64,000 nucleotides of DNA from Burkholderiaceae bacterium (GCA_032027205.1 JAVSMN010000001.1:1439300-1503299), one strand, 5' to 3'. Numbered from the stretch's first letter, positions 4,428 to 52,349 are shown. Notes: generated by a model not told the origin, from the letters alone. Translations and numbers: made by a program.

Positions 4428-5063
4428 ATGAGCGACGACCATCAGTCCTTCATCAACACTCCGCGTCAGTTGATCGTCGTCGTCGTTCTCGCATTCCTCG
4501 TTCCAATCGTCGTCATCGCGCTCATCGCCACCTACGTCCAGACGACGAAGCGAACCGGCACCGGTGCCGACGCGATGACGGCCGAAGCGATCGCCAAGCG
4601 ACTGCAGCCGATCGGCCGGCTCGAAGTCCAGGCGGCCGCGGCGCCGGAGGGCAGCACGCCAGCGCCCGCCGCCGCAGCCCCGGCGGCTGCACCCGCCGCG
4701 CCCGCAGCCGCTGCGGCACCTGCAGCAGCGGCTCCCGCTGGAGCCGCCGCGCCGGCGCCGGCCGCCTCGGCACCTGCGGCCGGCGCCCCTGCGCCCTCGC
4801 AAGCGGCGGGCAAGGTCGACGTCGCCGCCGGCGAAAAGATCTACAAGGCCACCTGCGGCGTCTGCCACGAGAGCGGCGTCGCCGGCGCGCCGAAGCACGG
4901 CGACAAGGCCGCGTGGAAACCGCGCCTGGACCAGGGCATGGACGTTCTCGACAAGCACGCGATCGAGGGCATCCGCGCGATGCCTCCGCGCGGCGGCAAC
5001 GCCAAGCTCACCGACGCCGAAATGCGCGACGCCGTCGCGTACATGGTCGCCGCGGTTCAGTGA
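4428..5063 (+). CDS. Membrane-anchored cytochrome c5-family protein with a long Ala/Pro-rich linker
   Basis: 211 aa with an N-terminal TM helix, a ~90-aa (A/P)n low-complexity linker (about nt 4630-4800), then CGVCH and AMPPRGG motifs. Confidence 0.8.
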   Translation: MSDDHQSFINTPRQLIVVVVLAFLVPIVVIALIATYVQTTKRTGTGADAMTAEAIAKRLQPIGRLEVQAAAAPEGSTPAPAAAAPAAAPAAPAAAAAPAAAAPAGAAAPAPAASAPAAGAPAPSQAAGKVDVAAGEKIYKATCGVCHESGVAGAPKHGDKAAWKPRLDQGMDVLDKHAIEGIRAMPPRGGNAKLTDAEMRDAVAYMVAAVQ

Positions 5064-23794: not shown

Positions 23795-24283
23795 ATGAAA
23801 CACGCCCGCACCCGCCGCTCGCTGATCGGCCTGCTGTTCCTCGCTCCGCTCGCCCCGCTCGCCGCCGCCCGCACGACGTCGCCCTGGGGCAGTGCCGACG
23901 AGATCGAGCGCCACTACGCGCCGGCCAAAGCCGTCTACGACGTCGACGCCCGCAACGCGGCCACGCTCGCCCGCGTGCTCGATCGCATCAGCTACCTGAA
24001 CAAAGTCTACGAAGCGAACCCCTTCGAGTCGGCGATCGTCGTCGTCGTGCACGGCGAAGCGATTCCACTGTTCGGCATCCGCGACCTCGATCGCTACCGC
24101 GCGGTGATGGAGCGTGCGCAAAGCCTGACGCAGAGCGGGCCGATCGAATTCCGCGTCTGCCGCGCCGATGCGGCGATGCGCGGCTACGCCGCTTCGGACA
24201 TCCACGGCTTCGCGCGCATGGTGCCGATGGCCGACGCCGAAATCGTCCGCCTGCAGGGCGAGGGGTACGCCTACATGCGCTGA
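23795..24283 (+). CDS. DsrE/DsrF-like family protein, secreted
   Basis: Trimmed to MKHARTRRSLIGLLFLAPLAPLAAA (signal peptide). The remainder (..AVYDVDARNAATLARVLDRISYL..VVVVHGEAI..) resembles DsrE-like proteins. Confidence 0.55.
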   Translation: MKHARTRRSLIGLLFLAPLAPLAAARTTSPWGSADEIERHYAPAKAVYDVDARNAATLARVLDRISYLNKVYEANPFESAIVVVVHGEAIPLFGIRDLDRYRAVMERAQSLTQSGPIEFRVCRADAAMRGYAASDIHGFARMVPMADAEIVRLQGEGYAYMR

Positions 24284-24287
24284 TGCC

Positions 24288-24650
24288 ATGAACCGCAAGC
24301 TCGTCGCCCTCCTGAGCGCGCTGTCGACTTTCGTCGTCGTGCTCGTCGCCTTCAATCTCGCACTGGGCAACAAGCAGATCGACGCGCCGCTCGAGCATCG
24401 CTACACGGTCTCCGACGCGCAGTTCCCGCGCGCGATGAGCTCGGTTCTCACGCCCTCGCTCGTCGGCGGCAATCGCATCGAGGCGCTGATCAACGGCGCC
24501 GAGATTTTCCCGGCGATGCTCGCGGCGATCCGCTCCGCACGCGAGTCGATCACGCTCGAAACGTACATCTACTGGTCGGGCACGATCGGTACAACCTGGC
24601 GCAACTGAACAACCGCACACATCGAAAGCTGCTCGCCATCGAATGGAATG
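24288..24650 (+). pseudogene. Phospholipase D / cardiolipin synthase-family gene remnant (internal deletion, frameshift, 3' truncation)
   Basis: Frame 1: MNRKLVALLSALSTFVVVLVAF..GGNRIEALINGAEIFPAMLAAIRSARESITLETYIYWSGTIG, then stop. From 24590 in another frame: YNLAQLNNRTHRKLL (first HKD motif), followed by non-homologous sequence. No second HKD motif. Confidence 0.6.
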
Positions 24651-24788
24651 GCGCGCGCGTTCGGCGTGGGATCGGGCGCTCGACCTCGCGGCCAGCGTAT
24701 TCAGCTCACAGCTCTAGTACGCGTACCCGTTTGGGGGCGCAAAAACGGCCTGAACGCAAAACGAAATAACTCTCACCTCCGCTCCAGA

Positions 24789-24802
24789 TTGATTCCAATC
24801 AA
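24789..24802. promoter_or_regulatory. Perfect FNR/Anr-type box TTGAT-N4-ATCAA
   Basis: Read directly as TTGATTCCAATCAA, 125 nt upstream of the ATG of the first cytochrome gene, in the lowest-GC stretch of the spacer. Confidence 0.6.
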
Positions 24803-24926
24803 GAAACTTGCGGTTGAGTTGCCGCATCGCACTGCACAACGAGGCTTACACGCACGCAACTGATTGACGGACCTTCCAACGGCGATAACCATCGGGTCAA
24901 GTAGGCCAATCCCGTGTGGAGTCGAG

Positions 24927-25253
24927 ATGTTCCAGAAGGCATTGATCGCAGCAGCAGCCACCCTCGCCCTCATCAGCGTCAACGCAAACGCAGTCGACGA
25001 AGATTCTGCCAAGGCGTTGGCCAAGCAGAACAAGTGCACGAAGTGCCACTCGGTCGACAAGAAGAAGGACGGCCCGTCGTTCAAGGAAACGGCCGCCAAG
25101 TACAAGGGCAAGCCCGACGGCCCCGACAAGCTCTACACGCACCTCACGACAAGGCCGGAGATCGAGGTCGACGGCAAGAAAGAAGAGCACACGGCGGTCA
25201 AGGGCAGCGACGCCGACATCAAGAACCTGATCGCCTGGATCCTGTCGCAGTAG
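24927..25253 (+). CDS. Small soluble monohaem cytochrome c (c551/c552-like)
   Basis: Trimmed to MFQKALIAAAATLALISVNANA (signal peptide). Single CTKCH motif; 108 aa. Confidence 0.8.
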   Translation: MFQKALIAAAATLALISVNANAVDEDSAKALAKQNKCTKCHSVDKKKDGPSFKETAAKYKGKPDGPDKLYTHLTTRPEIEVDGKKEEHTAVKGSDADIKNLIAWILSQ

Positions 25254-25326
25254 CCGCGGCGCGGTCGCGCACACCGGTTCCGCTCCCTCCCCTCATTGCG
25301 TCGACCACCGCCCGGAGGCACTTGAC

Positions 25327-25974
25327 ATGTCCGCGCCACGTCGCTTCGGCTGGAAAGGCCTGATCGGGCTCGCCTTCGTGGCCGTGCTCGCCGGGGCCAC
25401 GCTCGTGGTGGGCGGTGCCGCCGGCCTGGCGTGGACGAGCACCGAGTCCTTCTGCATCGGCTGCCACGAGATGAAGGACAACGTCTACGCCGAATACAAG
25501 AACACGATCCACGACACCAACCATAGCGGCGTGCGCGCCATCTGCACCGACTGCCACGTGCCGCGCGAGGTCGGCCCGCTGCTGCTGCGCAAGGCGCAGG
25601 CGTCGATGGAGGTGTGGCAGCACCTGCTGGGCAAGATCGACACCCGCGAGAAGTTCCTCGAGCACCGCTCGGAGCTCGCGTCACACGTGTGGAAACGCAT
25701 GCTCGAGACCGACTCGCGCGAGTGCCGCAACTGCCACGTCGCGGCCAAGTTCAGCGAGGAACTGCAGTCGGAGAAGGCCTGGGCGCGGCACACGAAGGCG
25801 CGCAACGAAGGCTGGACGTGCATCGAATGCCATTACGGCATCGCCCACAACGAGCCCGAAGGCGACGGGCCCGTCGAACTGCGGGCGAAGCTGAACCTTC
25901 CGCGCAAGCCTGCGGGCGCGGCGAGCGCGGCGGCGAAGGATCCCGCACCGGTGGGAATGAACCGCGAGCGTTGA
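25327..25974 (+). CDS. cymA: NapC/NirT/CymA-family membrane-anchored tetrahaem quinol dehydrogenase
   Basis: 215 aa with an N-terminal TM helix and four CxxCH motifs (CIGCH, CTDCH, CRNCH, CIECH). Confidence 0.85.
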   Translation: MSAPRRFGWKGLIGLAFVAVLAGATLVVGGAAGLAWTSTESFCIGCHEMKDNVYAEYKNTIHDTNHSGVRAICTDCHVPREVGPLLLRKAQASMEVWQHLLGKIDTREKFLEHRSELASHVWKRMLETDSRECRNCHVAAKFSEELQSEKAWARHTKARNEGWTCIECHYGIAHNEPEGDGPVELRAKLNLPRKPAGAASAAAKDPAPVGMNRER

Positions 25975-26092
25975 CGGCAACCGCGCGAATCGCGACGTCG
26001 CCACGAACACGAATACCGGCAGCAACAACCACAGCAGCATCCGCAACGGTTTCGAACTGCGAACGGGCAAGGGTCCCGTCGGGGGAGTCGAC

Positions 26093-28750
26093 ATGAAGAG
26101 CTCTTGTTTCCGCTTGGTCGCGGCGTCCCTGCTGACTCTCGTCATCGCCGGTTGCGGCGGAGGAGGCGGCAGCGATAACGGAGCGGCCCCCCCGCCGGCC
26201 CCCGAGTCGGTGCAGGGCATGATCGCGGCAGCCGCGGCCGACAAGGCCAACGATTCGTCGACGAATCCGGCTGCGTCGCTCGCCGTCGTTCAGAAGGCCG
26301 GCGTGCCGGCAGTCGTCGTGGGCCAGCCGACGAAGGTCAACTTCTCGGTGTTCTCCGACGGCGGCATCGTCAAGTCGCTGAAGCTGACCAACGTCAGCTT
26401 CGTCATCGCCAAGCTCATTCCGGGCGTGAACGGCGAGATCGACCGGTGGGTCAACTACGTGTACCGCACCGAGACGCCCCCGGCCGGCGCTGGTCCGGGC
26501 GGCGTACCGGTAATGGCGAAGGCGACGCAGGCGACGACCGATCCGAAACCGGCCGCCATGGCCGCCACGCAGCTCGTCTACAACGACGACGGCTACTACA
26601 CGTACACCTTCTCCACCGACATCACCGACCCGACGAAGACGAACGGCGTGGTCTTCGAGCCGAATCGCACGCACCGCGTCGTGATCCAGCTGAGCTATCT
26701 CGACGGCAAGGGTCGCCAGGTGCTGGTGAACCCGTCGATCGACTTCACCGTCGACGCCAACGGCAACGCGCTGCCGATCACCGACCCGCTGCAGACTCGC
26801 AAGATGGTCGACATGAACACCTGCAACGGCTGCCACTCGAAGCTGTCGCTGCACGGCGGCGGACGCGTCGACACGCAGTACTGCGTGACCTGCCACAACG
26901 CGGGCACCACCGACGCCAACAGCGGAAACCCCGTCACCTTCATGACGATGGTCCACAAGATCCACGCGGGCCGCTTCCTGGCCAAGGCTCTCGGTGGCGA
27001 GCACTACACGATCTGGGGCTTCAACAACACGGCCTTCGACTTCTCGGAGGTCGGCTTCCCGCAGGACCTGCGCAACTGCAGCACCTGCCATACCGGCGCC
27101 AACCCGGCGACGCCGCAGGGCGACAACTGGAAGACGCGCATCAGCAAGGAAGCGTGCCTGACGTGCCACGCGAGCGCCGTCGGTTCCAAGTGGGAGACCA
27201 GACATGCACCGATCGCGGTGACTCGCCTCGGCGCCGGCGCGGCCGCAACCGCACTGCCGAATGCCGAGTGCCTGACCTGCCACATCCCGGGCTCACGCAT
27301 CGGGTCGGACGTCGTGCACTGGGCGCAGGTCCAGCAGAACAGTGCGAAGTACAAGATGAACATCGTGAGCGCCACGCTCACCAACACGCCGACGACGACC
27401 ACCACCGGAACGACGACGGTGACGACCACACGCAGTGTCCAGGTCGTGTACTTCCTCTCGGATCCGACGAACGCTAACGCGGCGTACGACCTTACCGAGG
27501 GTTGCACTGGCGCACCGCCGAACCTCTGCGCGACCACCAACCGTTTTGGCAACCTGCAGCTCCGCATCGCCTACCAGAACCTGGTCGGGCAGCCGACGTC
27601 CGCAACGGAGTTCACCGCGTACAACAACGGAGGCACGGCGGCAGTGGCGAGCGCCTGGGCGGGCGTCAACGACGGCAGCAACCGCTATACGGTGAACATC
27701 CCGCTGCCCGACGACACGGCAACGGCGGTCGCCGCAGGAACGGCGCGCGTGGTCAGCGTCGGCCAGGTCAAGGAAGCGAAGATCGACGTAAAGGACCCCG
27801 CGAAGAAGGCGCTGGACACCTTGCTTCCCGGAGTATTGAACGTCACGGTGCAGCACGCCTCGCAGGAATTCGCGATCAGCGGCCCGCTGAACCCCCGCCG
27901 CAAGATCGTTGCGACCGAGAAGTGCAATGTCTGCCACGGCTCGCTCGGCACGACCTCGGGCTCGAACACGCTGGCCAACGCGTTTCATGCGGGCGGACGC
28001 ACCACCGTCGAGGCCTGCGTGGTCTGCCACGACCCGAACCGGATGTCCGCAACCGTGATGACTAACGGCATCGCGATGAACGAGTCGTACCAGTTCAAGC
28101 GGATGATTCACGGCATCCACGGCAACGGAAAGCGCGTCTATCCGTTCACGGCGGGCAACCGCGTCTCGGGCCAGTTCAACGACCTCGGCGTGCTGCTCAC
28201 CGACGGCGTGTTCCTGGCCAACTACTCGGTGACGGTTGCCGGCGCACCAAAAGTCGTCGTTCCTGCCGGAACCATGGTGCCGGCCGGCGAGTCGTTCACG
28301 ACGATCACCAACCTGATCCAGACAAATGCGACGGCAGCCGGCTACACCGGCGCACCGATCGCCGTACCGACCAACTTCGCCGAGGAAGCTCCGTGGCCCG
28401 GCATGGGAACGACAACCGCGCGGAACTCCGGGGCGAACGCGCGCAACTGCACGGCCTGCCACGTCGACGACTCGCACCTGCTCGATCGCGGCCCGGTCGG
28501 CGCAGTGGTGTCGAAGCCAGCCGGCGAGCTCGATCCGAAGAAGTGGGGCGTGATCTCGCCGAAGGCCGCGACCTGCACGTCGTGCCACGACTCGAGCAAG
28601 GCGATCGGCCACGTCACGAGTTGGGGCTTCGGGTCCTACGGGAACGAGACACAGGCGCAAAGCGCGTGGGGCTCGAAGGAGATCTGCGCCGACTGCCACT
28701 CGCCCGGCGGCTTCAAGGCGGTGGACGTAGTGCACGGGCTGCTGCCGTAA
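26093..28750 (+). CDS. mtrC: OmcA/MtrC-family outer-surface decahaem lipoprotein cytochrome c
   Basis: 885 aa with lipobox LVIAGC. Ten CxxCH motifs begin at residues 244, 264, 329, 355, 392 and 611, 642, 786, 827, 865 (a 5+5 arrangement). The haem-free middle domain carries a CTGAPPNLC cysteine pair. Confidence 0.9.
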   Translation: MKSSCFRLVAASLLTLVIAGCGGGGGSDNGAAPPPAPESVQGMIAAAAADKANDSSTNPAASLAVVQKAGVPAVVVGQPTKVNFSVFSDGGIVKSLKLTNVSFVIAKLIPGVNGEIDRWVNYVYRTETPPAGAGPGGVPVMAKATQATTDPKPAAMAATQLVYNDDGYYTYTFSTDITDPTKTNGVVFEPNRTHRVVIQLSYLDGKGRQVLVNPSIDFTVDANGNALPITDPLQTRKMVDMNTCNGCHSKLSLHGGGRVDTQYCVTCHNAGTTDANSGNPVTFMTMVHKIHAGRFLAKALGGEHYTIWGFNNTAFDFSEVGFPQDLRNCSTCHTGANPATPQGDNWKTRISKEACLTCHASAVGSKWETRHAPIAVTRLGAGAAATALPNAECLTCHIPGSRIGSDVVHWAQVQQNSAKYKMNIVSATLTNTPTTTTTGTTTVTTTRSVQVVYFLSDPTNANAAYDLTEGCTGAPPNLCATTNRFGNLQLRIAYQNLVGQPTSATEFTAYNNGGTAAVASAWAGVNDGSNRYTVNIPLPDDTATAVAAGTARVVSVGQVKEAKIDVKDPAKKALDTLLPGVLNVTVQHASQEFAISGPLNPRRKIVATEKCNVCHGSLGTTSGSNTLANAFHAGGRTTVEACVVCHDPNRMSATVMTNGIAMNESYQFKRMIHGIHGNGKRVYPFTAGNRVSGQFNDLGVLLTDGVFLANYSVTVAGAPKVVVPAGTMVPAGESFTTITNLIQTNATAAGYTGAPIAVPTNFAEEAPWPGMGTTTARNSGANARNCTACHVDDSHLLDRGPVGAVVSKPAGELDPKKWGVISPKAATCTSCHDSSKAIGHVTSWGFGSYGNETQAQSAWGSKEICADCHSPGGFKAVDVVHGLLP

Positions 28751-28771
28751 GCGATCGGGGGAGCGTAGTCG

Positions 28772-29737
28772 ATGCGTTGGAGAGCAGCGCTGGCGGTCGC
28801 GGTCCTGTGCCTGGCCGGTACGGCAGGCACGGCGCACGCGGCCGGCCGCGACGCGCAGGCGTCGGAGAAGTGCGTCGAATGCCATGACGAGGAAGACCTC
28901 CCCGACATGAGCCGCAGCGCGCATGCGGTGTCGGCCGATCCGCGCACGCCGGGTTGCGTCACCTGCCACGGCCCGAGCCGTGAGCACGTCGAGAAGAAGG
29001 GCGGCCAGCGTCCGCCGCCCGATCGCGTGTTCAGCCGCAAGGGCGGCTCGCCGGCCGCCGAGCGCACCGAGGCCTGCATCGGCTGCCACGACCGCGACCC
29101 GAAGCGCGCGCTGTGGCCCACCAGCCAGCATCACGCGTCCGACGTCGCCTGCTCGTCGTGCCACCGCATCCACACGAACCGGGATCGCGTGCTCGTGAAG
29201 ACCGAGCAGCCCGAGGTGTGCTTTGCCTGCCACAAGGAGCAGCGGGTGCAGCTGCGACGCCCGTCGCATCACCCGATTCCCGAAGGCAAGATGACCTGCT
29301 CAGACTGCCACAACGTGCACGGTTCGATGGGGCCGAAGCTGGTCAGCCGCGACAGCACCAACGACACCTGCTACACCTGCCACGCCGAGAAGCGTGGCCC
29401 CTTCGTGCACGGGCACGAGCCGGTCACCGAGAACTGCGCGAACTGCCACAACCCGCACGGCAGCACGATCGCGGCGATGCTCACCGCGCGGCCGCCGATG
29501 CTGTGCCACCAGTGCCACACCTCTCACGTCACCGGCAACGTCGGCGCGCTCGGCGGACAGCCGGGCGTCTTCACGGCCGCCGACCCCGATCTCGGTGCGC
29601 AGATCATCGGAACGACCGGCGGCAAGAACGTCGTGAACATCTGGCAGGCGCGCAGTTGTATGAACTGCCATACGCAGGTCCACGGCTCGAACAACCCGTC
29701 GACGACGAATCCGACCCCGGCGTTCCTGGGCCGCTGA
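28772..29737 (+). CDS. mtrA: MtrA/DmsE-family periplasmic decahaem cytochrome c
   Basis: 321 aa with a signal peptide and ten CxxCH motifs (CVECH, CVTCH, CIGCH, CSSCH, CFACH, CSDCH, CYTCH, CANCH, CHQCH, CMNCH). Confidence 0.9.
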   Translation: MRWRAALAVAVLCLAGTAGTAHAAGRDAQASEKCVECHDEEDLPDMSRSAHAVSADPRTPGCVTCHGPSREHVEKKGGQRPPPDRVFSRKGGSPAAERTEACIGCHDRDPKRALWPTSQHHASDVACSSCHRIHTNRDRVLVKTEQPEVCFACHKEQRVQLRRPSHHPIPEGKMTCSDCHNVHGSMGPKLVSRDSTNDTCYTCHAEKRGPFVHGHEPVTENCANCHNPHGSTIAAMLTARPPMLCHQCHTSHVTGNVGALGGQPGVFTAADPDLGAQIIGTTGGKNVVNIWQARSCMNCHTQVHGSNNPSTTNPTPAFLGR

Positions 29738-29746
29738 GGAGGCGAG

Positions 29747-31957
29747 ATGACCACCGGGAACGCGAATCGACGCTTCGGCCGCGGAGCCCTCGCGCTGGCG
29801 TTGCTGGCGGCCTTCGGCGCCGCGCACGCGGAAGAAGACGAAGTCGTCACCGAGAAGTCGGTCACCGCCGGCGTGGGCGTGGTCAGCGGCGACGACAAGG
29901 ACCGCGCGCTCTTCGGGCAGTACAACGGACTGCGCCCCGATCGCGCCTACGGCCTTCTCGACTTCGACTACTACCGCCGCGACGACGAGAAAGGCGCGGT
30001 GGTCCGCTTCAGCGGAACCGACCTGGGGCGCGAGAACCGCGAATTACACTTCCTGTGGAAGCGGCAGGGCAACTGGAAACTCACGGCCGACTACAGCGAA
30101 CTGGTGCGCCGCGACCCGCGCACGGTGAACACCGCGATGCTCGGTTGGGGATCGACGACGCCGCAGGTCGTTTACCTGGCCACCGGACCCGGAACAGGCG
30201 CCGAGATCCACCCGAAGACGAAGCGCGAGGGCATCGCCTTCGGCTTCTCGAAGTGGGTAGCCGAGAACATCGAGTTCCAGGCGAGCCTGAAGAGCGAGAA
30301 CAAGGACGGATCGCGCATTTCCGGCATCGGATTCAACTGCCCCTCGCCGATCGCCCCCGGTTGCCGTCCGGGCACCGCGATCAGCCCGGGCTGGGCCGTG
30401 CTGATGGTTCCCGAGCCGGTCGACTCGAACCACAGCCAGATGGAAGCGCGCCTGAGCTACGCCGGCGAAAAACTGCGCATGAGCGTCGGCTACTACGGCT
30501 CGTTCTTCAGCAACTCGCACGGCTCGCTGACGCCGTTCGTGCCGGGGAGCCTGAACAACCCGCTCGGCGTGCTGCAGCCGCTGAACGCGGGCCTGCAGCC
30601 GCTGCTGTCGCAGTCGATCGCGCTCGCGCCCGACAACCAGGCGCATCACATCGACGTGACCGGCATGTACGTGTTCACGCCGAGCACGCGCGGCACCTTC
30701 AAGCTCGCCACGGCGCGAGCAACGCAGGACCAGAGCTTCGCCAGCGCGGGCCTGATCGGTCCGGCAGGAATCACCGACCTCGACGGGCGCGTCGACACGT
30801 CGTTGGCGCAGGTAGGCCTGTCGTCGCGACTCACGCCGAAACTGTCGGTGCTCGCCGAATACCGGCGCGACCGGCGCAACGACAAGACGCCGATGGCGCT
30901 GTACGACGTCATCGGCGACCCGGCGACGACCACCTATCTCACCTACACGAACCGGCAGTACGACTACACGAAGAGCCGCGGCAAGCTGCAGGCGAGCTAC
31001 CAGTTCAGCAGCGACTGGCGCGGCACGCTCGGCCTGGACTACGAGGCGATCGATCGCGGCACCATCACGCAGAGCACCGCGTTCTTCGGCATCAGCGCGT
31101 TGCGGCAGAAAACCGAGGAACTGGGCTGGCGCGCCGAGTTGCGCAAGCGCATGACCGAGACCTTCAGCGCCGGCATCAGCCTGGTGAGCAGCAATCGCGA
31201 CGGCTCCGGCTGGCTGCGGCCGGTGAGCTGGGGAACCGGCGTGGTGCCGTACGGCAACCCGCCCACGTGGCTCGCCGAAAGTTCCGTCTTCATGCCGACG
31301 CTGGCCGATCGCGATCGGGACAAGGTGCGCCTGCATGCGGTCTGGCAGCCGCTGGACGAGTTGACGCTGCAGTTCAGCGCCGACTACGGACGCGACAAGT
31401 TCAGTTCGCCGAGCATGCAGGGGCTGCAGCACACCGACATGCGGCTGTACAACATCGACTGGGACTACGCGCTGTCGCTGCGCTGGAGGCTGAACGGCTA
31501 CGTGTCCGTGGGCAGCCAGACACTGGACCAGGCACGCCCGGCCGGCTACGTGATGGCCTACGACAACGACAACACGTCGATCGGCGTCGGCGCGGTCGGC
31601 AAGGTCGATTCGAAGCTGCAGGTGGGCGGCACGCTGTCGTGGTTCAACGACCGCAACGCCTACTCGCAGACGCTCGAGCGCAACGCCGACTACGCCAGCA
31701 CCGTGCTGCTGGCGGCAACGGGCGGCCTGCCCGACATCGTGTTCCGCACGACCGAGCTGAGACTGTTCGGCCGCTACCTGCTCACGAAGAGCTCGTCGGT
31801 GCAGGTGGACTTCGTCCACTACCGCGCGCGCTTCAACGACTGGTCGTACCGCTACGACGGTACGCCGTTCGTGTTCAGCGACAACACGACGGTGGAGCAA
31901 TTGCAGCGACAGAAGGCCTCGTTCGTCGGCGTCACCTACACGCACCGGTGGCAGTGA
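29747..31957 (+). CDS. mtrB: MtrB/PioB-family decahaem-associated outer-membrane beta-barrel porin
   Basis: 736 aa with a signal peptide ..ALLAAFGAAHA and beta-barrel-like alternating sequence ending ..VGVTYTHRWQ. Lies immediately downstream of mtrA. Confidence 0.85.
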   Translation: MTTGNANRRFGRGALALALLAAFGAAHAEEDEVVTEKSVTAGVGVVSGDDKDRALFGQYNGLRPDRAYGLLDFDYYRRDDEKGAVVRFSGTDLGRENRELHFLWKRQGNWKLTADYSELVRRDPRTVNTAMLGWGSTTPQVVYLATGPGTGAEIHPKTKREGIAFGFSKWVAENIEFQASLKSENKDGSRISGIGFNCPSPIAPGCRPGTAISPGWAVLMVPEPVDSNHSQMEARLSYAGEKLRMSVGYYGSFFSNSHGSLTPFVPGSLNNPLGVLQPLNAGLQPLLSQSIALAPDNQAHHIDVTGMYVFTPSTRGTFKLATARATQDQSFASAGLIGPAGITDLDGRVDTSLAQVGLSSRLTPKLSVLAEYRRDRRNDKTPMALYDVIGDPATTTYLTYTNRQYDYTKSRGKLQASYQFSSDWRGTLGLDYEAIDRGTITQSTAFFGISALRQKTEELGWRAELRKRMTETFSAGISLVSSNRDGSGWLRPVSWGTGVVPYGNPPTWLAESSVFMPTLADRDRDKVRLHAVWQPLDELTLQFSADYGRDKFSSPSMQGLQHTDMRLYNIDWDYALSLRWRLNGYVSVGSQTLDQARPAGYVMAYDNDNTSIGVGAVGKVDSKLQVGGTLSWFNDRNAYSQTLERNADYASTVLLAATGGLPDIVFRTTELRLFGRYLLTKSSSVQVDFVHYRARFNDWSYRYDGTPFVFSDNTTVEQLQRQKASFVGVTYTHRWQ

Positions 31958-31958
31958 C

Positions 31959-32636
31959 GTGCCTCGAACCGCGATCGAACGACTCGGCTTCGCGCTTCTC
32001 CTGGCGATCCCGCTGGCGATCGTCACGCTGTTCTGGCGCTTCGAGGTCGCGCCGAGAGGCGCGACGTCGATGACCGCGCGGCTGCCCGGTGCAGCGCAGC
32101 TGTCGGGCGGCGGGCAACTCTCGGGCGGCGGCGCCCAGCACGACGCGGCGAGCGACCCGGAAATGCAGCAGATGGCCGCGCGGCTCGCGCAGCGCCTCGA
32201 ACGCGAGCCGGGGGACGCGGAAGGCTGGCGCACGCTCGCGCGCACCTACTACGTGATGCAGCGCTTCCCGGAAGCGGTCGCGGCCTACGAACGGCTCGAC
32301 GCGCTCGGCGCGCCCGACGCCGACGTGCTCGCCGACTGGGCCGACGCGGCAGCGATGGCGCAGGGTCGGCGCCTGGACGGCCGCCCACTGCAGCTCGTGC
32401 GGCGCGCGTTGGCCGCGAACCCGACGCAGTGGAAGGCGCTGTCGATGGCGGCCACCGACGCACTGGAGCGCGGAGACGTGAATGCGGCGATCGAAGGCTG
32501 GGAGCGCGCGCTAGCTGCCGTGCCCGAGGGTTCGGACAGGGCTGCATCGATCCGCTCCAGCCTAGAGCAGGCGCGCCAGTCGCTCACGGCGAGCGCCAAC
32601 AACGAGACGGGCGGCAACAGAAACGCGATCCGCTGA
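31959..32636 (+). CDS. TPR-repeat protein resembling the C-terminal apocytochrome-chaperone part of CcmI/CycH (NrfG-like)
   Basis: GTG start 2 nt after the mtrB stop. N-terminal TM segment, then ..MAARLAQRLEREPGDAEGWRTLARTYYVMQRFPEAVAAYERL.., which matches the CcmI/NrfG TPR pattern as I recall it. Confidence 0.55.
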   Translation: MPRTAIERLGFALLLAIPLAIVTLFWRFEVAPRGATSMTARLPGAAQLSGGGQLSGGGAQHDAASDPEMQQMAARLAQRLEREPGDAEGWRTLARTYYVMQRFPEAVAAYERLDALGAPDADVLADWADAAAMAQGRRLDGRPLQLVRRALAANPTQWKALSMAATDALERGDVNAAIEGWERALAAVPEGSDRAASIRSSLEQARQSLTASANNETGGNRNAIR

Positions 32637-32664
32637 TGCGGCGCGTCTCGCGCCGCCGCCAGCT

Positions 32665-33171
32665 TCAGCGCGTGCGCACCGGGATCGGCGTTGTCCGGTC
32701 GACGGGCACCGTCGTCACCGAGTTCTGCGGCGAACCTTCAATCAGGCGTTCGGCGTAGGTGAGGTAGACGAGCGCATTGCGCTGCCGGTCGACCATCCGC
32801 ACGATGCGCAGTTTCTTGAACACGAGACTGATGCGCTCGCTGAATACCTCCTCCTGCTCGGGCAGCGGCTGTGCGATCGCGATCGGCGCGACCTGCGTGC
32901 AGGCGATCGACGCCTCGGAGCGGTCTTCGGCGACGCCGAGCGCACCCTTGATGCCCCCGGTTTTCGCGCGCGACACGTAGCAGGTGACGCCGCTCACCTT
33001 CGGGTCGTCGTAGGCCTCGACGACGATCTTGTGGTCGGGGCCGATCCACTTGAAGACCGTGTCGACCTCGCCGATGGGTTCGGCCGCGGCGACGAGTGGC
33101 GCGGCAACGAGCAGCGCCGCGGCACTGCAGCGCGCGACGCCGCGCCTGGCGAGGAAAGCTGCAATCGACAT
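32665..33171 (-). CDS. creA: CreA-family protein
   Basis: 168 aa with a signal peptide. ..[29 protein letters not shown].. is characteristic of CreA. Confidence 0.8.
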
Positions 33172-33210
33172 TCGTTCGCGCTCGGAGACAGGATTTGCGC
33201 GTGCCAGGCG

Positions 33211-34666
33211 TCAGGGTCGCTGCGCGCGCCCGCTGGCCAGCAGCGCGCGGACGAAGGCGCGCGTGTGCGCACCGTATTCGCGCATCAGCGGAACGACGGT
33301 GCGAACCATCGCGTCGCGTGCAGCCGGCCCGCTCTTGGTGAGTTGCGCGTTCAGGTCAACGCCTCGCGCGTCGACCCCAAACTCGAAATCGGGGTCGTCG
33401 ACATATCTGGCCGGCAGCGCCGCGGCGACCTCGCGGTCGAGCGCATTGGCGGACTTCGCTGCACGTTTCGCCACCACGGCGCGCGGATCGTCCTCGCCGA
33501 ACACCGGATGTCGGCCAGCGGCCGCTGCGCCCCCGGCAGCCGCGGCCGCCTGGGGATCGTCGCGGCCCTCATCGGACAGCGCGCGAAGCAGCGGCCCTTC
33601 ACCGGCAGCGCCTTGCTCGGCGACCACCGCCGTGCGCTGGAAGTTCTCCAGCGCCAGGTGCCGGTTCGACACCAGCGTAATCGCCCGCGTCTTCGCGCCG
33701 GGCGAGCCGGCCATGTCGAGCGCGTTGATCCACAGCATGCGCAGCGTGCTCACGCCGGGGGAGCACGCGCGCGTGGTAGGGCTGCGTCAGATCCTGGATG
33801 TAGTGCATCGCCCAGCCGGCGAAGCGCCAGCCCCAGTAGTCGTGGCCGGTGCGCAGCGCGTGCTGCGCCAGCGTGCGGTAGAGGTGAATCCGGTATTCGG
33901 GATAGGTGCGCTTCAGGAATCCGGCCGCGGCATAGATGATCGACGACTCGTAATAGAAGCCCATGTGGAACGGCGCCTGCGTACCGAACGAGAGCGCCGG
34001 GTTGCCGAAGGGCTGCTTGCCGAAGCCGTACATGCGACCGTGCGGCGTGCCGTTGTCCTCCCAGACGCCGATGTCGAGCCCATAGTCGGGCTCGTCCGAA
34101 GCGGTGGCGCCGACGTCGAGAGGGGAAACGGACTCGCCCTCGCGCAGCGCGACGAAGGGCGAAGCGCCGACGGCGTCCTCGCCGTCGTCGTCGGCGAGCG
34201 TGCTGACGCGAGAACGGGCGAGCACCGGTCGATCGGTTGCGTCGTTCGGCGAAAGCCGCTTCAAGAACAGCGCGAGCCGCGCGTCGGGCGCGATGCGCAG
34301 CGCAGCAACGAAGCGGCGGCGCAGTTCGTCCGGCGTCTGCGCGCCTGCCGCGACGAAGCGCAGCGCGTCGGGTCGCGGCGGATACGTCGGCACGTGCTCG
34401 CGCGACCATGCTTCCGCGGCGTCGAGCACCGGCTCGAGCGCGTCGGCCTGCGCGGCAAGAAAAGCGTCGAGCGACTCGACGCGCACGGGTTCGAGCCGAG
34501 CGAACTCGGGCATGTCCTTCAACGCCGCCCAGGTGTCCAGCGCGTGGCCGCTCCAGGCGAGGGCCGGCGCGGCACACAATGCCACCGATGCGGACAGCGC
34601 GGCTCGAAAGAGCGCGAACGCCGACACGCAGCGCCGCGGGGGTCGACAGCAGGCAGGCCGATGCAT
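33211..34666 (-). pseudogene. Zinc-dependent phospholipase C / P1-nuclease-fold-like secreted protein; reading frame broken at a C5 run
   Basis: The upstream frame ends ..AMHYIQDLTQPYHARVLP. Removing one C from the C5 run (G5 at 33757-33761 on the plus strand) continues it as GVSTLRMLWINALDMAG.. (ORF 33211..33753). The mature N-terminus AWSGHA and the H-Y-x2-D-x3-P-x-H motif are PLC/P1-like. Confidence 0.5.
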
Positions 34667-34706
34667 CGGCCTCAGGATACCGTCACCCGGAAGCAGTTGC
34701 GCCGAA

Positions 34707-35060
34707 TCAGCGGCCCCTGCCCCCGCCCGACCCCGCTCCGCCGGCTCCGGGGCCGACCCCGCGCCCGGCTCCGCCGCGACTCGCGGCATTGCCGCCACGC
34801 ACCGCCGGCGGCTCGTCGGGAATGGCGACGCCGCGCGCCTGCGCGCGTTCCTTCATGAGCTCGTGGTGTTGCGCGCGGATCTGCTCTTGCTCCTGCGCGG
34901 TTTTCGCCGCGCGCATCCGGTCGCGATACTCGTTGCGCTCCTGCTGGGTCATCAGCTGGCTGCCATAGATCGGCTCTTGCGGATCAGCCGCGAATGCGAG
35001 CGACGCCGGCAGCGACAACGCAGCCGCCAGGGCCGAAGCCATCAGTGTTCGCCTGTTCAT
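34707..35060 (-). CDS. Small secreted protein of unknown function (helical, Gly-rich tail)
   Basis: Trimmed to MNRRTLMASALAAALSLPASLAFA (signal peptide). Followed by ..QQERNEYRDRMRAAKTAQEQEQIRAQHHELMKERA.. and a G/R-rich C-terminus. Confidence 0.5.
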   Translation of the reverse strand: MNRRTLMASALAAALSLPASLAFAADPQEPIYGSQLMTQQERNEYRDRMRAAKTAQEQEQIRAQHHELMKERAQARGVAIPDEPPAVRGGNAASRGGAGRGVGPGAGGAGSGGGRGR

Positions 35061-45539: not shown

Positions 45540-48374
<2,835 letters not shown>

Positions 48375-48426
48375 AAGCTGGAGTAGCCTGCCTCCGGAGC
48401 CCCTTCAAAGAGGGCATGGAGGAGCG

Positions 48427-49538
48427 ATGAAGAAGTCGAGGTATACGGAGGAGCAGATCGCCTATGTGCTGCGTCAGGCCGAATCGGGTACGCCGGTGTC
48501 TGACGTGTGCCGCAGCACCGGGATCTCGGAGGCGACCTTCTACAACTGGAAAAAGAAGTACGCGAACCTGGGTGTCACGGAATTGCGCCGGCTCAAGCAG
48601 CTCGAAGACGAGAACGCACGCCTGAAGCGCCTGGTGGCCGATCTGACGCTGGACAAACACATCCTGAACGAGGTGATCCGAAAAAAGCTCTGACGCCGAC
48701 GCGGCGCCGAGAGCTCACTCGATGGATCCACGAACGGTTCCAGGTGAGCTTGACGCGAGCGTGTCGGCTGGGTGGGGTCAGCCGGGCCGGTTGGTACCGG
48801 CGCAGCACCGCACGGGATCACAGTGGGCTGCAGATGCGAATTCGCGATCTCGCGCTCAGCCGGCCACGCTTCGGCTATCGGCGCATCCATGTGCTGCTGC
48901 GTCGCGAGGGCTGGCTGATCAACCTGAAACGCGTACATCGGCTCTACCGCCTGGAAGGGCTGCAGGTGCGAATGCGGGTCAGGCGACGCAAGCGGCTCAG
49001 CCTGCATCGCGGCCCCGCGCCCGCAGCGCGGGCCCTTGATGAACGGTGGAGCATGGATTTCGTCCACGATCAGCTGGTCGACGGCAGGACGTTTCGTGTG
49101 CTGACCGTCGTCGACAATTGGAGTCGTGAGAGCGTATTGCTGGAGGCCGGGTTCCGGCTCACCGGCCAGAGCGTCGTGGCGGCACTGGCGAGAGTGGCAA
49201 CCCGACGCAAGCTTCCGCGTTCGATCACCGTCGACCATGGCACCGAGTTCACCTCGCGGGCTTTGGATGAATGGGCGTGGGCGAGCGGAGTACAGCTGGA
49301 CTTCACGCGACCCGGCAGGCCCACCGATAATGGGCTGTGCGAGTCGTTCAATGGTCGGCTGCGCGATGAATGCCTGAACGTCACCGAGTTTGAATCGATT
49401 GCCCATGCGCATCAAAGGCTGGAGGCTTGGCGCACCGACTACAACGAGCAACGTCCACATGGCGCACTCGGTCATCTGACCCCGAGTGAATACGCCCGAT
49501 CAGGTCGGACCCATGCTTCGGAAGGCGAGTCACCCTAG
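48427..49538 (+). CDS. IS3-family transposase OrfA (48427-48693) / OrfB (to 49538), with an A6G slippery heptamer at 48681-48687
   Basis: OrfA is MKKSRYTEEQIAYVLRQAESGTPVSDVCRSTGISEATFYNWKKKY.. The -1 frame after AAAAAAG continues KKALTPTRRRELTRWIHERF.. with DDE motifs ..WSMDFV..TVDHGTEF..ESFNGRLRDECLN.. Confidence 0.85.
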
Positions 49539-49622
49539 TTCAGAACCGTCTACAAAATGGGGCAACGTCATCGTCAAAGCGGACTCTAATCCCGGGCGGG
49601 ACTGATTCAGGGGAGCAGGTCA

Positions 49623-49806
49623 GGTAAAGACAATCTGCGTTAACGCCACCATCAAGGGGGTCGAAATACGGGATCTCATACCCGCTACCCATCTCTATTC
49701 GGAGACTTCTAACGAAAGCCGAAACCGGTGCGACGTGGTCGTCTTCAATTGCTGCGAGACGCTGCTGGCGCGCTTCGGGTGATCTGAGAATCTTCGGCGC
49801 GCCCAT
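49623..49806 (-). pseudogene. Cassette ORF truncated by IS insertion (possibly a uracil-DNA-glycosylase-superfamily-like N-terminus)
   Basis: MGAPKILRSPEARQQRLAAIEDDHVAPVSAFVRSLRIEMGSGYEIPYFDPLDGGVNADCLYL, then runs into the IS terminus. The FDPxDGG motif recalled from UDG-like proteins is weak evidence. Confidence 0.4.
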
Positions 49807-49821
49807 GTCTTCGCTTATGTC

Positions 49822-49920
49822 GACTAACGTTCAAGCTCAGCGGCCGGCAAAAGAGGCGCGGCTTTTGCGCAAGCAAAAGGCGTGACGCATTTGACGGTCC
49901 GCTGCAGCGAAATGTTAGGC
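49822..49920 (-). other. attC recombination site (99 bp, divergent type)
   Basis: GACTAACgttcaagctcagcggcc...gacggtccgctgcagcgaaatGTTAGGC. The central arms are complementary (ggcaaaagaggcgcggcttttgcgcaagcaaaagg). Confidence 0.75.
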
Positions 49921-49930
49921 CGCACCATCA

Positions 49931-50353
49931 TCATTTCTGTCCGCGAATCCACAGCGGGTGAATGTACTGACCATGGATGGAACGTAGCTCTGGCTCATTC
50001 GTGTGTCGGAGCTGGCCACTCGCTGAATCGTGCCGAAAGCGACTGTAGGCCTCGCTGTCAGCCGCAAGAATCTCAAGAGCACCGCGACGAACCCGCCAAG
50101 TCGATTCATTGGCATTGCGACCTTCTCCGATGTCACCGTTATCCAGGAACGTGAGCACTTTCGACTGGCCGGTCATCGGATTGAATACGAAGTTAAATCG
50201 CCTCCCATTCAGAAGCAGCTTCCCAAGCTTGCGCGAAGAAAGCCACCATCTCAATGGCCCAGCAAGCCAAGCGACCGCTGCCAGGAAAGCCGTTGCCAAG
50301 ATAGTGGCAATGATCTGCCCCGCGATCGAGCTAAGTAAGGCGTCTGGATCCAT
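49931..50353 (-). CDS. Cassette 3 ORF: small N-terminally membrane-anchored protein, no recognisable domain
   Basis: 140 aa with a TM helix IAGQIIATILATAFLAAVAWLAG followed by a ~100-aa soluble part. Low GC. Confidence 0.6.
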   Translation of the reverse strand: MDPDALLSSIAGQIIATILATAFLAAVAWLAGPLRWWLSSRKLGKLLLNGRRFNFVFNPMTGQSKVLTFLDNGDIGEGRNANESTWRVRRGALEILAADSEAYSRFRHDSASGQLRHTNEPELRSIHGQYIHPLWIRGQK

Positions 50354-50371
50354 CGGCGACCTTGCGCTGCG

Positions 50372-50429
50372 GCCTAACGTTAGAATTCACCGGCTGCCAA
50401 AGGCAGTCCGGTGCGACGACCGGTTAGGT
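50372..50429 (-). other. attC recombination site (58 bp, canonical short type)
   Basis: GCCTAACgttagaattcaccggctgccaaaggcagtccggtgcgacgaccgGTTAGGT. Has perfect RYYYAAC and GTTRRRY ends and complementary inner arms. Confidence 0.8.
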
Positions 50430-50439
50430 CGGGGCATGC

Positions 50440-50922
50440 CTATGAGATTTTCCGAATGGAGACCACCGCCGACTCAATTTTCAGGGTATCTCGGTCGAAC
50501 CACGTGGCCTGACCGTCCATAGCGAGTCGATCTGGGCTGACAATGAGCTGGATAAGGCCGTTGCCTGTTGTATTTCCTTTCTCTCCAACCTTTTCGTACG
50601 AACCGAATACGAGGTTGTGCTTGATTCGTAAGTCGTAGAGAAACCTCCGCTTCTCAGACTTCGTCTCCCCTTCTCCGGACACGCTGCTTCCAAGATGACG
50701 AAGCCGTAGACATTCGAGCTCCTCTCGAAGTGACTTCGGGTCTATAGGATCAGGTTCCTTGAACGTGTACTCCCACGTCCCGGTTAGATCGAAACGATCC
50801 GGATTGACGAAGTGAAAAAGCCAGCCGAGCAAGTTGCCCGAGACTCTTGCGAATGGCGGTGACATGTAGTTTGCGACGAGGCTCGCTACGACCCCCAGGG
50901 CAAAACCGGTCAGTATCTCCAT
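50440..50922 (-). CDS. Cassette 2 ORF: small N-terminally membrane-anchored protein, no recognisable domain
   Basis: Trimmed to MEILTGFALGVVASLVANYMS.. 160 aa. The ORF-track N-terminal extension would run into the attC. Low GC. Confidence 0.6.
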   Translation of the reverse strand: MEILTGFALGVVASLVANYMSPPFARVSGNLLGWLFHFVNPDRFDLTGTWEYTFKEPDPIDPKSLREELECLRLRHLGSSVSGEGETKSEKRRFLYDLRIKHNLVFGSYEKVGEKGNTTGNGLIQLIVSPDRLAMDGQATWFDRDTLKIESAVVSIRKIS

Positions 50923-50943
50923 AAGCTTCCCATTGGTGTTACG

Positions 50944-51021
50944 CCCTAACGTTTGACATGAGCGGCAGTTGGAGGCAAGCAAAGCTTGCCGGAAGCTGTC
51001 CGCTCGATGGAGGGGTTAGAG
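50944..51021 (-). other. attC recombination site (78 bp, 'house' family)
   Basis: CCCTAACgtttgacatgagcggc...gtccgctcgatggagggGTTAGAG. Confidence 0.75.
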
Positions 51022-51036
51022 CGCGTTGATCTGAAC

Positions 51037-51948
51037 TCACGCATTCATCGGCCCCCAAGAGTGCAGGCCGCGGACCGAGAGAACTGGTTGGAGCGGAGGA
51101 GCTTCGCTTTCTCCAAGCTTTTGCCAATGATTCTGGACAGCGACGGGGTCGAGCGCACCGAGTGTGAATGCATTCGTGATAACGAAACCTGTCTGCTCAT
51201 CGCGTAGACCGCTGAGCTGCTCTATCGGCACATGACCATAGTACCTCTGGCGTGTGACGTGAAGCGAAACAGTTAGAGCGACAGGAATGAGCATCCCGTA
51301 ACTGTTATCGATCTTGGTGACGATATCGGGAATAAGCGGAACCTGCTCGTGGACGCCGGGATCGGATGGGTACGTGCCTTCGTTCCATCGCTGGGTAGCG
51401 ATGTCGTAGATGACACCGAGGGGTTGCCCATCCTCAGAGAAAACGGGTAGCTCAAAAAACCGCTGCGGGAGACTAAACGGTACAGGTGCGGAACAAGAAA
51501 TCTCGAAACCGATACGGGTGGCTCGAAAGTCGCACACGACTGGCAACGCTAGTCGGACCTGCCATTTGTGAGAGCCTGTGTCCGCAGGACTGTAGAGATC
51601 AATATGCAGCTTTTTAGCGCGCTTCTTGGCAGACTTTGTGAAGCCAGAGGGGCAAACAAGAGCGCCCTTGTGAGCGCCAATGTCTTGGACAAGGCCATGA
51701 AACTCTTCGACACCTTTCACATCAACGGGTGACCCATAGTCTTTGCAATCGAGTGCAACTCGCATCGGATACTGACCGATGTTCTGCTCAACCAGAACAT
51801 CGATCTGACGGGTTGTCTCGCTCAGCAGACCGGGCACCTTCGCGTTGTGTGTGACTTTGGCGTGCGGTGCGAGTTGCTTCTGGATGGATGCGACTAACAG
51901 CTCAAGCTGTTGCCACTCAGGTTTCTGTGCGTTCACCGTTTTGCGCAA
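51037..51948 (-). CDS. Cassette 1 ORF: PD-(D/E)xK restriction-endonuclease-like (Mrr_cat-type) N-terminal domain fused to an unknown ~175-aa C-terminal domain
   Basis: 303 aa with a TTG start (alternative GTG at 51936). ..RQIDVLVEQNIGQYPMRVALDCKDYGSPVDVKGVEEFHGLVQDIGAHKGALVCPSGFTKSAKKRAKK.. fits the D..(D/E)xK core and layout of Mrr-type nucleases. A spot count gives 53% GC. Confidence 0.65.
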   Translation of the reverse strand: MRKTVNAQKPEWQQLELLVASIQKQLAPHAKVTHNAKVPGLLSETTRQIDVLVEQNIGQYPMRVALDCKDYGSPVDVKGVEEFHGLVQDIGAHKGALVCPSGFTKSAKKRAKKLHIDLYSPADTGSHKWQVRLALPVVCDFRATRIGFEISCSAPVPFSLPQRFFELPVFSEDGQPLGVIYDIATQRWNEGTYPSDPGVHEQVPLIPDIVTKIDNSYGMLIPVALTVSLHVTRQRYYGHVPIEQLSGLRDEQTGFVITNAFTLGALDPVAVQNHWQKLGESEAPPLQPVLSVRGLHSWGPMNA

Positions 51949-51975
51949 AGGGATACAAGCCGTTGTACGCCGCGG

Positions 51976-51994
51976 GTTAGCACGCGCTCTAACG
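51976..51994 (-). other. Putative attI / first-cassette junction
   Basis: On the plus strand this reads GTTAGCACGCGCTCTAAC|G. CTCTAAC sits where the other cassettes have their RYYYAA|C boundary. No integrase-binding repeats were identified. Confidence 0.3.
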
Positions 51995-52349
51995 TGTTTT
52001 GGAGCGATCCCGCACCGCGATTCCGTCCCCCCGCACGGCGATAACCTGTGTGGTCACGTGACCGCAAGTGCTTCTTGCCATTGACGAAAATCCCCGCGCT
52101 CACCACGAACGGCCGACGTAACCGGGCCTGCAAGCACCGCTGGACCGACGACGGTGCCCGGTCGCACCGATATAAACCGGCGCCGACGAAATAACCGTAC
52201 GCGTCCGCACGCGCCCGAACGACGCTCACGCTACGTCTTTCGCGAAGTGCCCCGCAGGCGACACGAATAACAACTTCGCAACGCCCGCTGGCGATTGCAC
52301 GACTCCACCCGTTCTTATTAGTCCGTTCGCACGATGGTCGCAATCCTTT

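Follow-up and report, generated by a model that had tools for sequence, protein, structure and literature searches.

We analysed a 64,000-nucleotide stretch of DNA from Burkholderiaceae bacterium (GCA_032027205.1, JAVSMN010000001.1:1439300-1503299; hereafter the window) and found in it a six-gene operon that is almost certainly a Group 4 Mtr porin-cytochrome conduit of the betaproteobacterial kind, in a Zeimonas-like Burkholderiaceae genome. Clusters of this kind, and their spread through the Burkholderiales, are already published: Baker et al. (2022, mBio, PMC8805035) describe Group 4 mtrCAB as almost wholly confined to Betaproteobacteria, mostly Burkholderiales, with mtoC and mtoD homologues adjoining mtrCAB, and name Caenimonas koreensis DSM 17982, Ramlibacter lithotrophicus RBP-2 and Albidoferax ferrireducens T118 as betaproteobacterial examples. 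What the window adds, namely a sixth gene for a short tetratricopeptide-repeat (TPR) protein, a candidate FNR-type site upstream and a predicted insertion sub-domain in MtrC, are small additions to that known type and not a new system. The genes and the site, with positions counted from the first letter of the window, are as follows.

24789-24802, FNR/ANR (CRP-FNR family)-type palindrome TTGATTCCAATCAA, 138 nt upstream of the mtoD-like start codon
24853-32639, plus strand, conserved module as a block of nucleotide similarity (blastn against the related locus L009)
24927-25253, plus strand, monohaem cytochrome gene, 108 amino acids, one CxxCH (CTKCH at residue 37)
25327-25974, plus strand, tetrahaem cytochrome gene, 215 amino acids, four CxxCH, N-terminal hydrophobic anchor or membrane helix
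26093-28750, plus strand, mtrC, 885 amino acids, lipobox, five plus five CxxCH
28772-29737, plus strand, mtrA, 321 amino acids, ten CxxCH
29747-31957, plus strand, mtrB, 736 amino acids, no CxxCH
31959-32636, plus strand, short CcmI-like TPR gene, 225 amino acids, sixth gene of the operon, 1 nt past the mtrB stop

A preliminary description of the locus had proposed five same-strand genes at 24927-31957 with 25 haem motifs, and the open reading frame (ORF) listing and motif counts agree. The first five genes are separated by 73, 118, 21 and 9 nt, the last two gaps lying within the contiguous, co-directional series mtrC-mtrA-mtrB, and a GGAG-like ribosome-binding site stands ahead of each of the five starts. 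The four cytochrome genes carry 1 + 4 + 10 + 10 = 25 CxxCH motifs. Since 25 of the 30 CxxCH motifs encoded in all six frames of the whole 64-kb window fall inside these four genes, the cluster is not a product of chance. The operon does not end at 31957, however, as had been supposed, because the sixth gene follows the mtrB stop codon after a single nucleotide. Terminators were no more frequent than in shuffled sequence.

Searches with profiles of the MtrA, MtrB and MtrC-OmcA families, which the preliminary description had put forward as a check, placed all three proteins far above the family cut-offs. MtrC scores 510 bits on TIGR03507 (OmcA/MtrC; cut-off 209), matches PF22113 in three stretches (E 1e-59) and also matches PF22112. 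It has the expected four-domain build of a decahaem lipoprotein with a CX7C pair: a lipobox (LVIAG/C21), two sets of five CxxCH motifs (residues 244-393 and 611-865), and between them a haem-free part that contains C471-X7-C479. None of the ten CxxCH motifs varies in 120 sequences, and C471 and C479 are at least 90% conserved. Among solved structures, the sequence matches of MtrC are OmcA, MtrF, UndA and MtrC. An AlphaFold model built on 120 homologues (predicted local distance difference test score, pLDDT, 81.8; predicted template-modelling score 0.77) gave 15 structure matches with E of 0.001 or less, every one of them an OmcA, UndA or MtrC chain (E 2e-28 to 9e-9); the next match had E 0.012. 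The database holds more than 1000 MtrC homologues, and the best 120 are 53-91% identical to the window protein and 812-902 amino acids long, their named sources being Ramlibacter, Caenimonas, Piscinibacter and unclassified Burkholderiales or Burkholderiaceae; the three genera, from the Comamonadaceae and other Burkholderiales, include strains covered by Baker et al. (PMC8805035). A scan of a genome collection with MtrC, run with very specific peptide patterns, returned only three relatives (50-58% identity); the closer relatives came from exact-protein look-ups.

The great length of MtrC, with about 140 residues between haems 7 and 8, had been presented as a special feature. The lengths themselves are correct (885 amino acids; 144 residues), but they are a trait of the group. 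Haems 7 and 8 are 86-144 residues apart (median 132) in 119 ten-haem homologues, with the window protein at the top of that range, and we rejected both length and spacing as locus-specific features, since both are usual in the betaproteobacterial group (119-120 homologues). The spacing reflects an extra segment of about 90-100 residues (about 680-770); by comparison with MtrF, some 100 MtrC residues (678-779) replace about 10. This segment is confidently predicted to form a small alpha/beta sub-domain (pLDDT 90-97 for residues 680-760). It is the least conserved stretch of the family alignment, a variability that would fit a surface-exposed, fast-evolving region.

The 321-residue decahaem protein, labelled MtrA/DmsE at the outset, does belong to that family: it has ten CxxCH motifs and a signal peptide (...AHA/AG), scores 291 bits on TIGR03508 (DmsE/MtrA family; cut-off 192), and matches chain A of 6R2Q (MtrA of Shewanella baltica) over residues 28-310 with E 5e-62. 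Its identity to MtrA of related modules is 81-93%. The assignment of the 736-residue protein to the MtrB/PioB barrels is equally secure, with 441 bits on TIGR03509 against a cut-off of 240, a match to PF11854 over the full profile (E 2e-132), a match to chain B of 6R2Q (E 9e-15) and a signal peptide (...AHA/EE). The only cysteines of MtrB, C198 and C206 (window 30338-30364), form the motif CPSPxAPGC. A cysteine pair (CX6-7C) occurs at the same position in nine of nine Burkholderiales sequences, with the full motif in the six closest, and may form a group-specific disulfide. An N-terminal CXXC has been reported for MtrB of metal-reducing Gammaproteobacteria; the window protein has CPSPxAPGC instead, and none of the nine Burkholderiales MtrB examined has an N-terminal CXXC in its mature form.

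Judged by its sequence, the monohaem protein is an MtoD orthologue, a periplasmic class I cytochrome c. The CTKCH motif that had been noted lies at residue 37 of 108, behind a signal peptide (...NANA/VD), and the protein matches PF00034 (E 6e-10). Among solved structures it comes closest to 4XXL, the MtoD protein of Sideroxydans lithotrophicus ES-1 (E 1.2e-26, residues 7-107). C37, C40, H41 and H88 align with Cys43, Cys46, His47 and the distal ligand His95, the haem residues named for MtoD in PMC4412085. The protein has no methionine besides the initiator; His/Met ligation is therefore excluded, and the haem would be bis-His ligated.

The tetrahaem protein had been called CymA-like. Its membership of the NapC/NirT family (PF03264, E 4.7e-62), its four CxxCH motifs and its membrane anchor all stand, and CymA is a fair functional analogy, but a closer label is available. 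Over 176 amino acids it shares 43% of its residues with E. coli NapC (E 6e-52), the CxxCHEM first motif among them. It reaches 212 bits on TIGR02161, under that model's 311-bit cut-off, and is thus a member of the family and not a canonical NapC/NirT. A structure search gave only a weak match to NrfH (E 0.002). For ImoA of Sideroxydans (formerly CymA-ES-1 or MtoC), the reported identities are 54% to NapC and only 33% to Shewanella CymA (PMC9600427). On the strength of the NapC identity and these published ImoA figures, the window protein seems better called NapC/NirT(ImoA)-type.

Two more genes for monohaem c-type cytochromes lie about 20 kb upstream. One (3141-3515, minus strand) encodes a 124-residue secreted protein with CASCH, and the other (4428-5063, plus strand) a membrane-anchored protein of 211 amino acids with an Ala/Pro-rich linker and CGVCH. 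Both look like ordinary aerobic respiratory carriers, but they might work together with the MtoD-like protein or with an oxidase. Another CxxCH in the window sits in a DUF255 thioredoxin-like protein, where it is probably a redox CxxC motif and not a haem site.

The product of the sixth gene scores 72 bits on PF23914 (TPR_CcmH_CycH; cut-off 42) and aligns at 29% identity with the C-terminal TPR part of E. coli CcmH, residues 197-345 (E 1e-14). NrfG (2E2E, E 4.5e-6) is the sole natural protein among its top structure matches. With CcmI, the C-terminal TPR part of CcmH and NrfG it shares the TPR_CcmH_CycH domain and an N-terminal hydrophobic membrane helix, which is conserved. It differs from full-length CcmI (280-460 amino acids, with two membrane helices, TPR and Ig_CycH) in being only about 225 amino acids long and in lacking the Ig_CycH part, with no hit to PF23892, and its gene is coupled to mtrB and not set in a ccm operon. 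In a database search about 40 short homologues (about 200-260 amino acids) outrank full-length CcmI proteins. The short form stands directly 3' of mtrB in all seven loci in which it was looked up (the window, L009, L011, L012, L014, L015 and L016), and its gene usually overlaps mtrB or starts within 13 nt of it. Among loci reached through MtrC rather than through the TPR protein itself, four of nine have the gene. Between modules the protein keeps 57-71% identity, and its TPR core is strongly conserved. The L015 locus has, 700 nt beyond the short gene, a full-length ccmI together with ccmABCDE; the short form is therefore a paralogue and not a remnant. In a Ramlibacter metagenome-assembled genome (MAG; L013), a whole ccmA-I operon follows mtrB in place of the short gene, an arrangement that Baker et al. 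(PMC8805035) noted for six clusters. The words "TPR", "tetratricopeptide" and "ccmI" do not occur in the main text of that paper. Most likely, to judge from its domain and gene position, the protein helps haem attachment to, or assembly of, the haem-rich proteins of the conduit.

The region upstream of the first gene is 318 nt long and contains TTGATTCCAATCAA, which is the sole perfect match to TTGAT-N4-ATCAA in the 64-kb window, against 0.01 expected from shuffles. When six related upstream regions are aligned, the TTGA-N6-TCAA core stays in register and does not vary. With at most one mismatch allowed, 12 loci (292 kb) contain 13 sites, of which 10 are no more than about 210 nt upstream of mtoD or mtrC; the loci with such a box upstream include Caenimonas, Ramlibacter and a Rhodoferax MAG. 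A box that is perfect, unique in the window and conserved in position suggests that the operon is controlled by an FNR/ANR-type regulator, which would bind there, and hence that it is induced at low oxygen. No FNR-type site is mentioned in the sections consulted of Baker et al. 2022 (PMC8805035).

Further conserved blocks, ATCGCACTGCA..., TTGACGGACC and GATAACCAT, lie downstream of the box at 24826-24895. The same blocks are present in the aligned regions of L008, L009, L011 and L012, and a consensus promoter scan did not call them; they may be a core promoter or the site of a second regulator. In the Ramlibacter MAG L013, the mto/mtr cluster has an FNR-type box of its own at -92, and a few kb upstream of it are genes for a Crp/Fnr-family regulator (1632-2432) and for a two-component system.

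Both flanks of the operon are syntenic with those of a Zeimonas sp. MAG (L014; 69-81% protein identity) and are also common to L008; the shared genes include those for a pyruvyl transferase and a DsrE-like protein upstream and a 355-residue protein downstream. One cluster-mate of the amidase in the flank carries the name Burkholderiaceae bacterium. From the shared flanks and the amidase we therefore take the host to be a Zeimonas-like member of the Burkholderiaceae. Zeimonas has been reported from anammox reactors. The neighbouring genes are of heterotroph type (amidase, amino-acid ABC transport, enoyl-CoA hydratase), the window shows no genes for carbon fixation or lithotrophy, and the 10 kb to each side of the module contain no other respiratory or reductase genes.

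The likeness to published Group 4 clusters extends to the mtrC-mtrA-mtrB order, the MtoD-type and NapC/NirT (MtoC/ImoA) genes alongside, the Burkholderiales host, and an MtrC of 812-902 amino acids with wide spacing between haems 7 and 8. The window differs from them in having no adjacent ccmA-I or frdABCD and, relative to the group as published, in the short CcmI-like TPR gene after mtrB. The MtrC, MtrA and MtrB proteins are 58, 67 and 48% identical to those of Caenimonas koreensis DSM 17982. In the window mtoD and the NapC/NirT gene stand upstream in the operon, whereas in Caenimonas mtoD is downstream and there is no NapC/NirT gene within 10 kb.

The module had also been called Shewanella-type, which is right for the MtrCAB core and wrong for the accessory set, since the latter is a Sideroxydans-type MtoD with a NapC/NirT(ImoA)-type protein where Shewanella uses CymA, FccA and CctA (STC). 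The three-part architecture and the folds are those of Shewanella MtrCAB (6R2Q; MtrC 4LM8, OmcA 4LMH, MtrF 3PMQ, UndA 3UCP): the MtrC model matches full-length OmcA, UndA and MtrC chains with E 2e-28 to 6e-18, and the cysteine pair falls in the haem-free domain III. The window MtrC is, however, only 14-19% identical to these proteins in structural alignment and carries the additional sub-domain of about 90-100 residues. With the Mto pathway of Sideroxydans lithotrophicus ES-1 the window shares an MtoD orthologue, a NapC/NirT-type tetrahaem protein and an MtrA/MtrB-type core. It differs in having MtrC, which is not among the described parts of that pathway (MtoA, MtoB, ImoA, MtoD and PmcA), and in a neighbourhood that looks heterotrophic and not lithoautotrophic.

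From these parts we propose the following sequence of events. Oxygen limitation would cause an FNR/ANR-type regulator to bind the TTGAT-N4-ATCAA box and so switch on the operon. The NapC/NirT-type tetrahaem protein in the inner membrane would exchange electrons with the quinone pool, and the bis-His MtoD-type monohaem protein, possibly with other periplasmic cytochromes, would ferry them through the periplasm. Decahaem MtrA, threaded in the MtrB barrel, would carry electrons across the outer membrane to the surface lipoprotein MtrC, which would pass them to extracellular Fe(III) or Mn(IV) minerals, humics or electrodes. The co-translated TPR protein would help system I haem attachment on the apoproteins, or assembly of the complex.

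As to direction, the wire is probably reversible, and we lean slightly towards outward, reductive flow, with the conduit giving a heterotroph that is otherwise aerobic an outlet for electrons under hypoxia. MtoAB and PioAB of Fe(II) oxidisers comprise homologues of MtrA and MtrB only, and Baker et al. (PMC8805035) set out the idea that MtrC confers reductive capacity; with MtrC present, outward flow is plausible. Also counted in its favour are the oxidation of quinol by ImoA of Sideroxydans, which replaces CymA in Shewanella (PMC9600427), the ability of MtoD to carry electrons from CymA to MtrA in Shewanella (PMC13390432), the reduction of iron by Albidoferax (Rhodoferax) ferrireducens T118, an MtrCAB-bearing betaproteobacterium (PMC8805035), and the heterotrophic-looking neighbourhood.

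Several points weigh against the scheme. The chain of events is a prediction modelled on well-studied homologues. A Pfam scan of about 30 ORFs in the window found no gene for an FNR-type regulator, and a consensus scan found no sigma-70 promoter. The syntenic locus L008 lacks the TPR gene, which is thus neither universal nor indispensable. Menaquinone is the usual partner for outward flow, and the menaquinone status of the host lies outside the 64-kb view. The candidate FNR box would fit microaerobic Fe(II) oxidation as well as it fits anaerobic respiration. MtoA and PioA nest among the MtrA proteins of complete MtrCAB modules (PMC8805035), so phylogeny would not settle direction; the preliminary description had said that direction could not be told from sequence, and this accords with the account by Baker et al., in which MtoA and PioA form no function-specific clades. 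Ramlibacter lithotrophicus expresses mtrCAB in a Mn(II)-oxidising co-culture (PMC8805035). Finally, purified Sideroxydans MtoD, whose potential is +155 mV, showed no interaction with either ImoA or MtoA in vitro and has been proposed to feed a terminal oxidase (PMC13390432), which fits inward flow.

Inward flow through the same hardware is the strongest alternative, though on balance we think it unlikely. Electrons from Fe(II), Mn(II) or reduced minerals would enter at low oxygen, as proposed for the Sideroxydans Mto pathway, and would pass through the high-potential MtoD-type protein to a terminal oxidase and through the NapC/NirT-type protein to the quinone pool. The potential and proposed role of the ES-1 protein count towards this route, as do the close orthology of the monohaem protein to MtoD, with both His ligands kept, the expression of Ramlibacter lithotrophicus mtrCAB on Mn(II), and a box suited to a microaerobic niche. 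Neighbouring mtoC and mtoD genes are the hallmark of the Fe(II)-oxidiser pathway (PMC8805035), and the window holds two further monohaem cytochromes of aerobic type. On the other side, ImoA acted as a quinol oxidase in vivo (PMC9600427), the neighbours are of heterotroph type with no lithotrophy genes in view, and the module has a single monohaem gene, of MtoD type, and no second one (a PmcA-type carrier was not searched for directly); in ES-1 it was PmcA that interacted with ImoA and MtoA. Unlike MtoAB and PioAB, the window has an MtrC homologue, encoded directly upstream of mtrA, and this lowers the claim that the locus is an MtoAB, not the claim that it can run inward. The question of outward flow, inward flow or both in Group 4 MtrCAB/MtoD systems is not made more tractable by this sequence alone.

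It is very improbable that the module is DmsEF-like and feeds a surface reductase for a soluble substrate such as DMSO or iodate in place of minerals. The best NCBIfam model for the decahaem protein, TIGR03508, is indeed named "DmsE family", and MtrAB-type cores serve DmsEFAB in Shewanella (PMC8805035; PMC9732548), but TIGR03508 is a subfamily model that covers MtrA too. We rejected this possibility on gene context: the 10 kb to each side are free of molybdopterin, Fe-S and DMSO-reductase genes, and a gene for an MtrC/OmcA decahaem protein directly upstream of mtrA is the defining mtrCAB layout.

The module recurs in different genomic settings. By blastn, window positions 24853-32639 are 84% identical to L009 8793-16491 as one block, with unrelated flanks in L009, where a cox CO-dehydrogenase cluster lies upstream of the module. 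L011 and L012 match the window at 24912-31953 and 32171-32598, and their flanks are different again. Protein identity across four module copies is 57-93%; it is highest for MtrA (81-93%, which indicates purifying selection) and lowest for MtrC and the TPR protein. In three related genomes (the window, L008 and the Zeimonas MAG L014) the module stands at one and the same chromosomal position. We found no flanking direct or inverted repeats in 24200-33300, only repeats of haem-motif codons and weak chance pairs, and no adjacent integrase; the nearest transposases are 13-17 kb away. These observations agree with the modular, partly horizontal spread described by Baker et al. (PMC8805035), together with vertical inheritance in the Zeimonas-like lineage.

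A further alternative is a horizontally acquired cluster that is decaying or silent and has no present function. Different flanks across related genomes, a GC content slightly lower in the cluster (0.64-0.68) than in the flanks (0.69-0.71), a possible gene remnant just upstream (24288-24608) and the insertion sequence (IS) elements 13-17 kb away are the points for it. Against these, none of the six ORFs is disrupted and each has a ribosome-binding site, the haem motifs and axial ligands are conserved throughout, MtrA shows the mark of purifying selection, and the module occupies one site in three genomes; we consider this alternative highly unlikely.

A bolder proposal, which we put forward only tentatively, is that the mtrB-coupled TPR protein is an unrecognised, dedicated maturation or assembly factor for Mtr and that, with the FNR-type box, the 7.8-kb six-gene block might be a transferable unit, complete in itself, that gives Burkholderiaceae with an otherwise aerobic life an electron outlet at low oxygen.

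Some observations concern the edges of the module and the wider region. The ORF at 24288-24608 (plus strand, 106 amino acids), between the DsrE-like gene and the module, resembles by eye a truncated N terminus of a phospholipase D/cardiolipin synthase. It has no Pfam match and no tblastn counterpart in L008, L009, L014, L015 or L016, and may be a gene remnant at the left edge of the module. At the right edge (31972-33236), L008 has about 60 nt in place of the TPR gene and a CreA-family gene, the latter at 32665-33171 (minus strand) in the window; the Zeimonas MAG L014 has the TPR gene and lacks CreA. These differences mark the right edge as an indel hotspot. Beyond it, the overlapping minus-strand ORFs at 33599-34666/34798 and 33211-33753 (together 33211-34798) correspond to one gene of 484-512 amino acids in L014, L007 and L008, and the tblastn alignment of the 355-residue downstream ORF ends at residue 303; the split is probably a frameshift, which would mean either a pseudogene or an assembly error.

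A patch of mobile elements (45540-49538 and 51037-51948), not adjoining the mtr module, contains an IS21-type IstA/IstB pair (45540-47197), IS3-type transposases at 47165-48070 (minus strand) and 48507-49538 (plus strand), and an Mrr-type restriction endonuclease; GC content at 48000-52000 is 0.55-0.61. The MAG GCA_029980345.1 has two syntenic versions of the region, on contigs JARXNP010000293.1 (the window's version) and JARXNP010000839.1 (L007). MtrC is only 75% identical between L007 and the window, and the upstream flank is syntenic as well; the bin probably mixes two related populations. In L016 (ERZ25039600 contig_28760) the mtr genes are broken into many short ORFs, most likely through frameshift errors in the assembly and not real decay.

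With this operon a Zeimonas-like lineage of Burkholderiaceae joins the bacteria for which electron exchange with minerals or electrodes is predicted. In the heterologous expression of Mtr conduits, efficiency is a recognised difficulty (PMC12175506), and if the TPR protein aids maturation, it might improve such expression. If the FNR-type site is functional, it would tie a widespread betaproteobacterial type of Mtr conduit to oxygen limitation.

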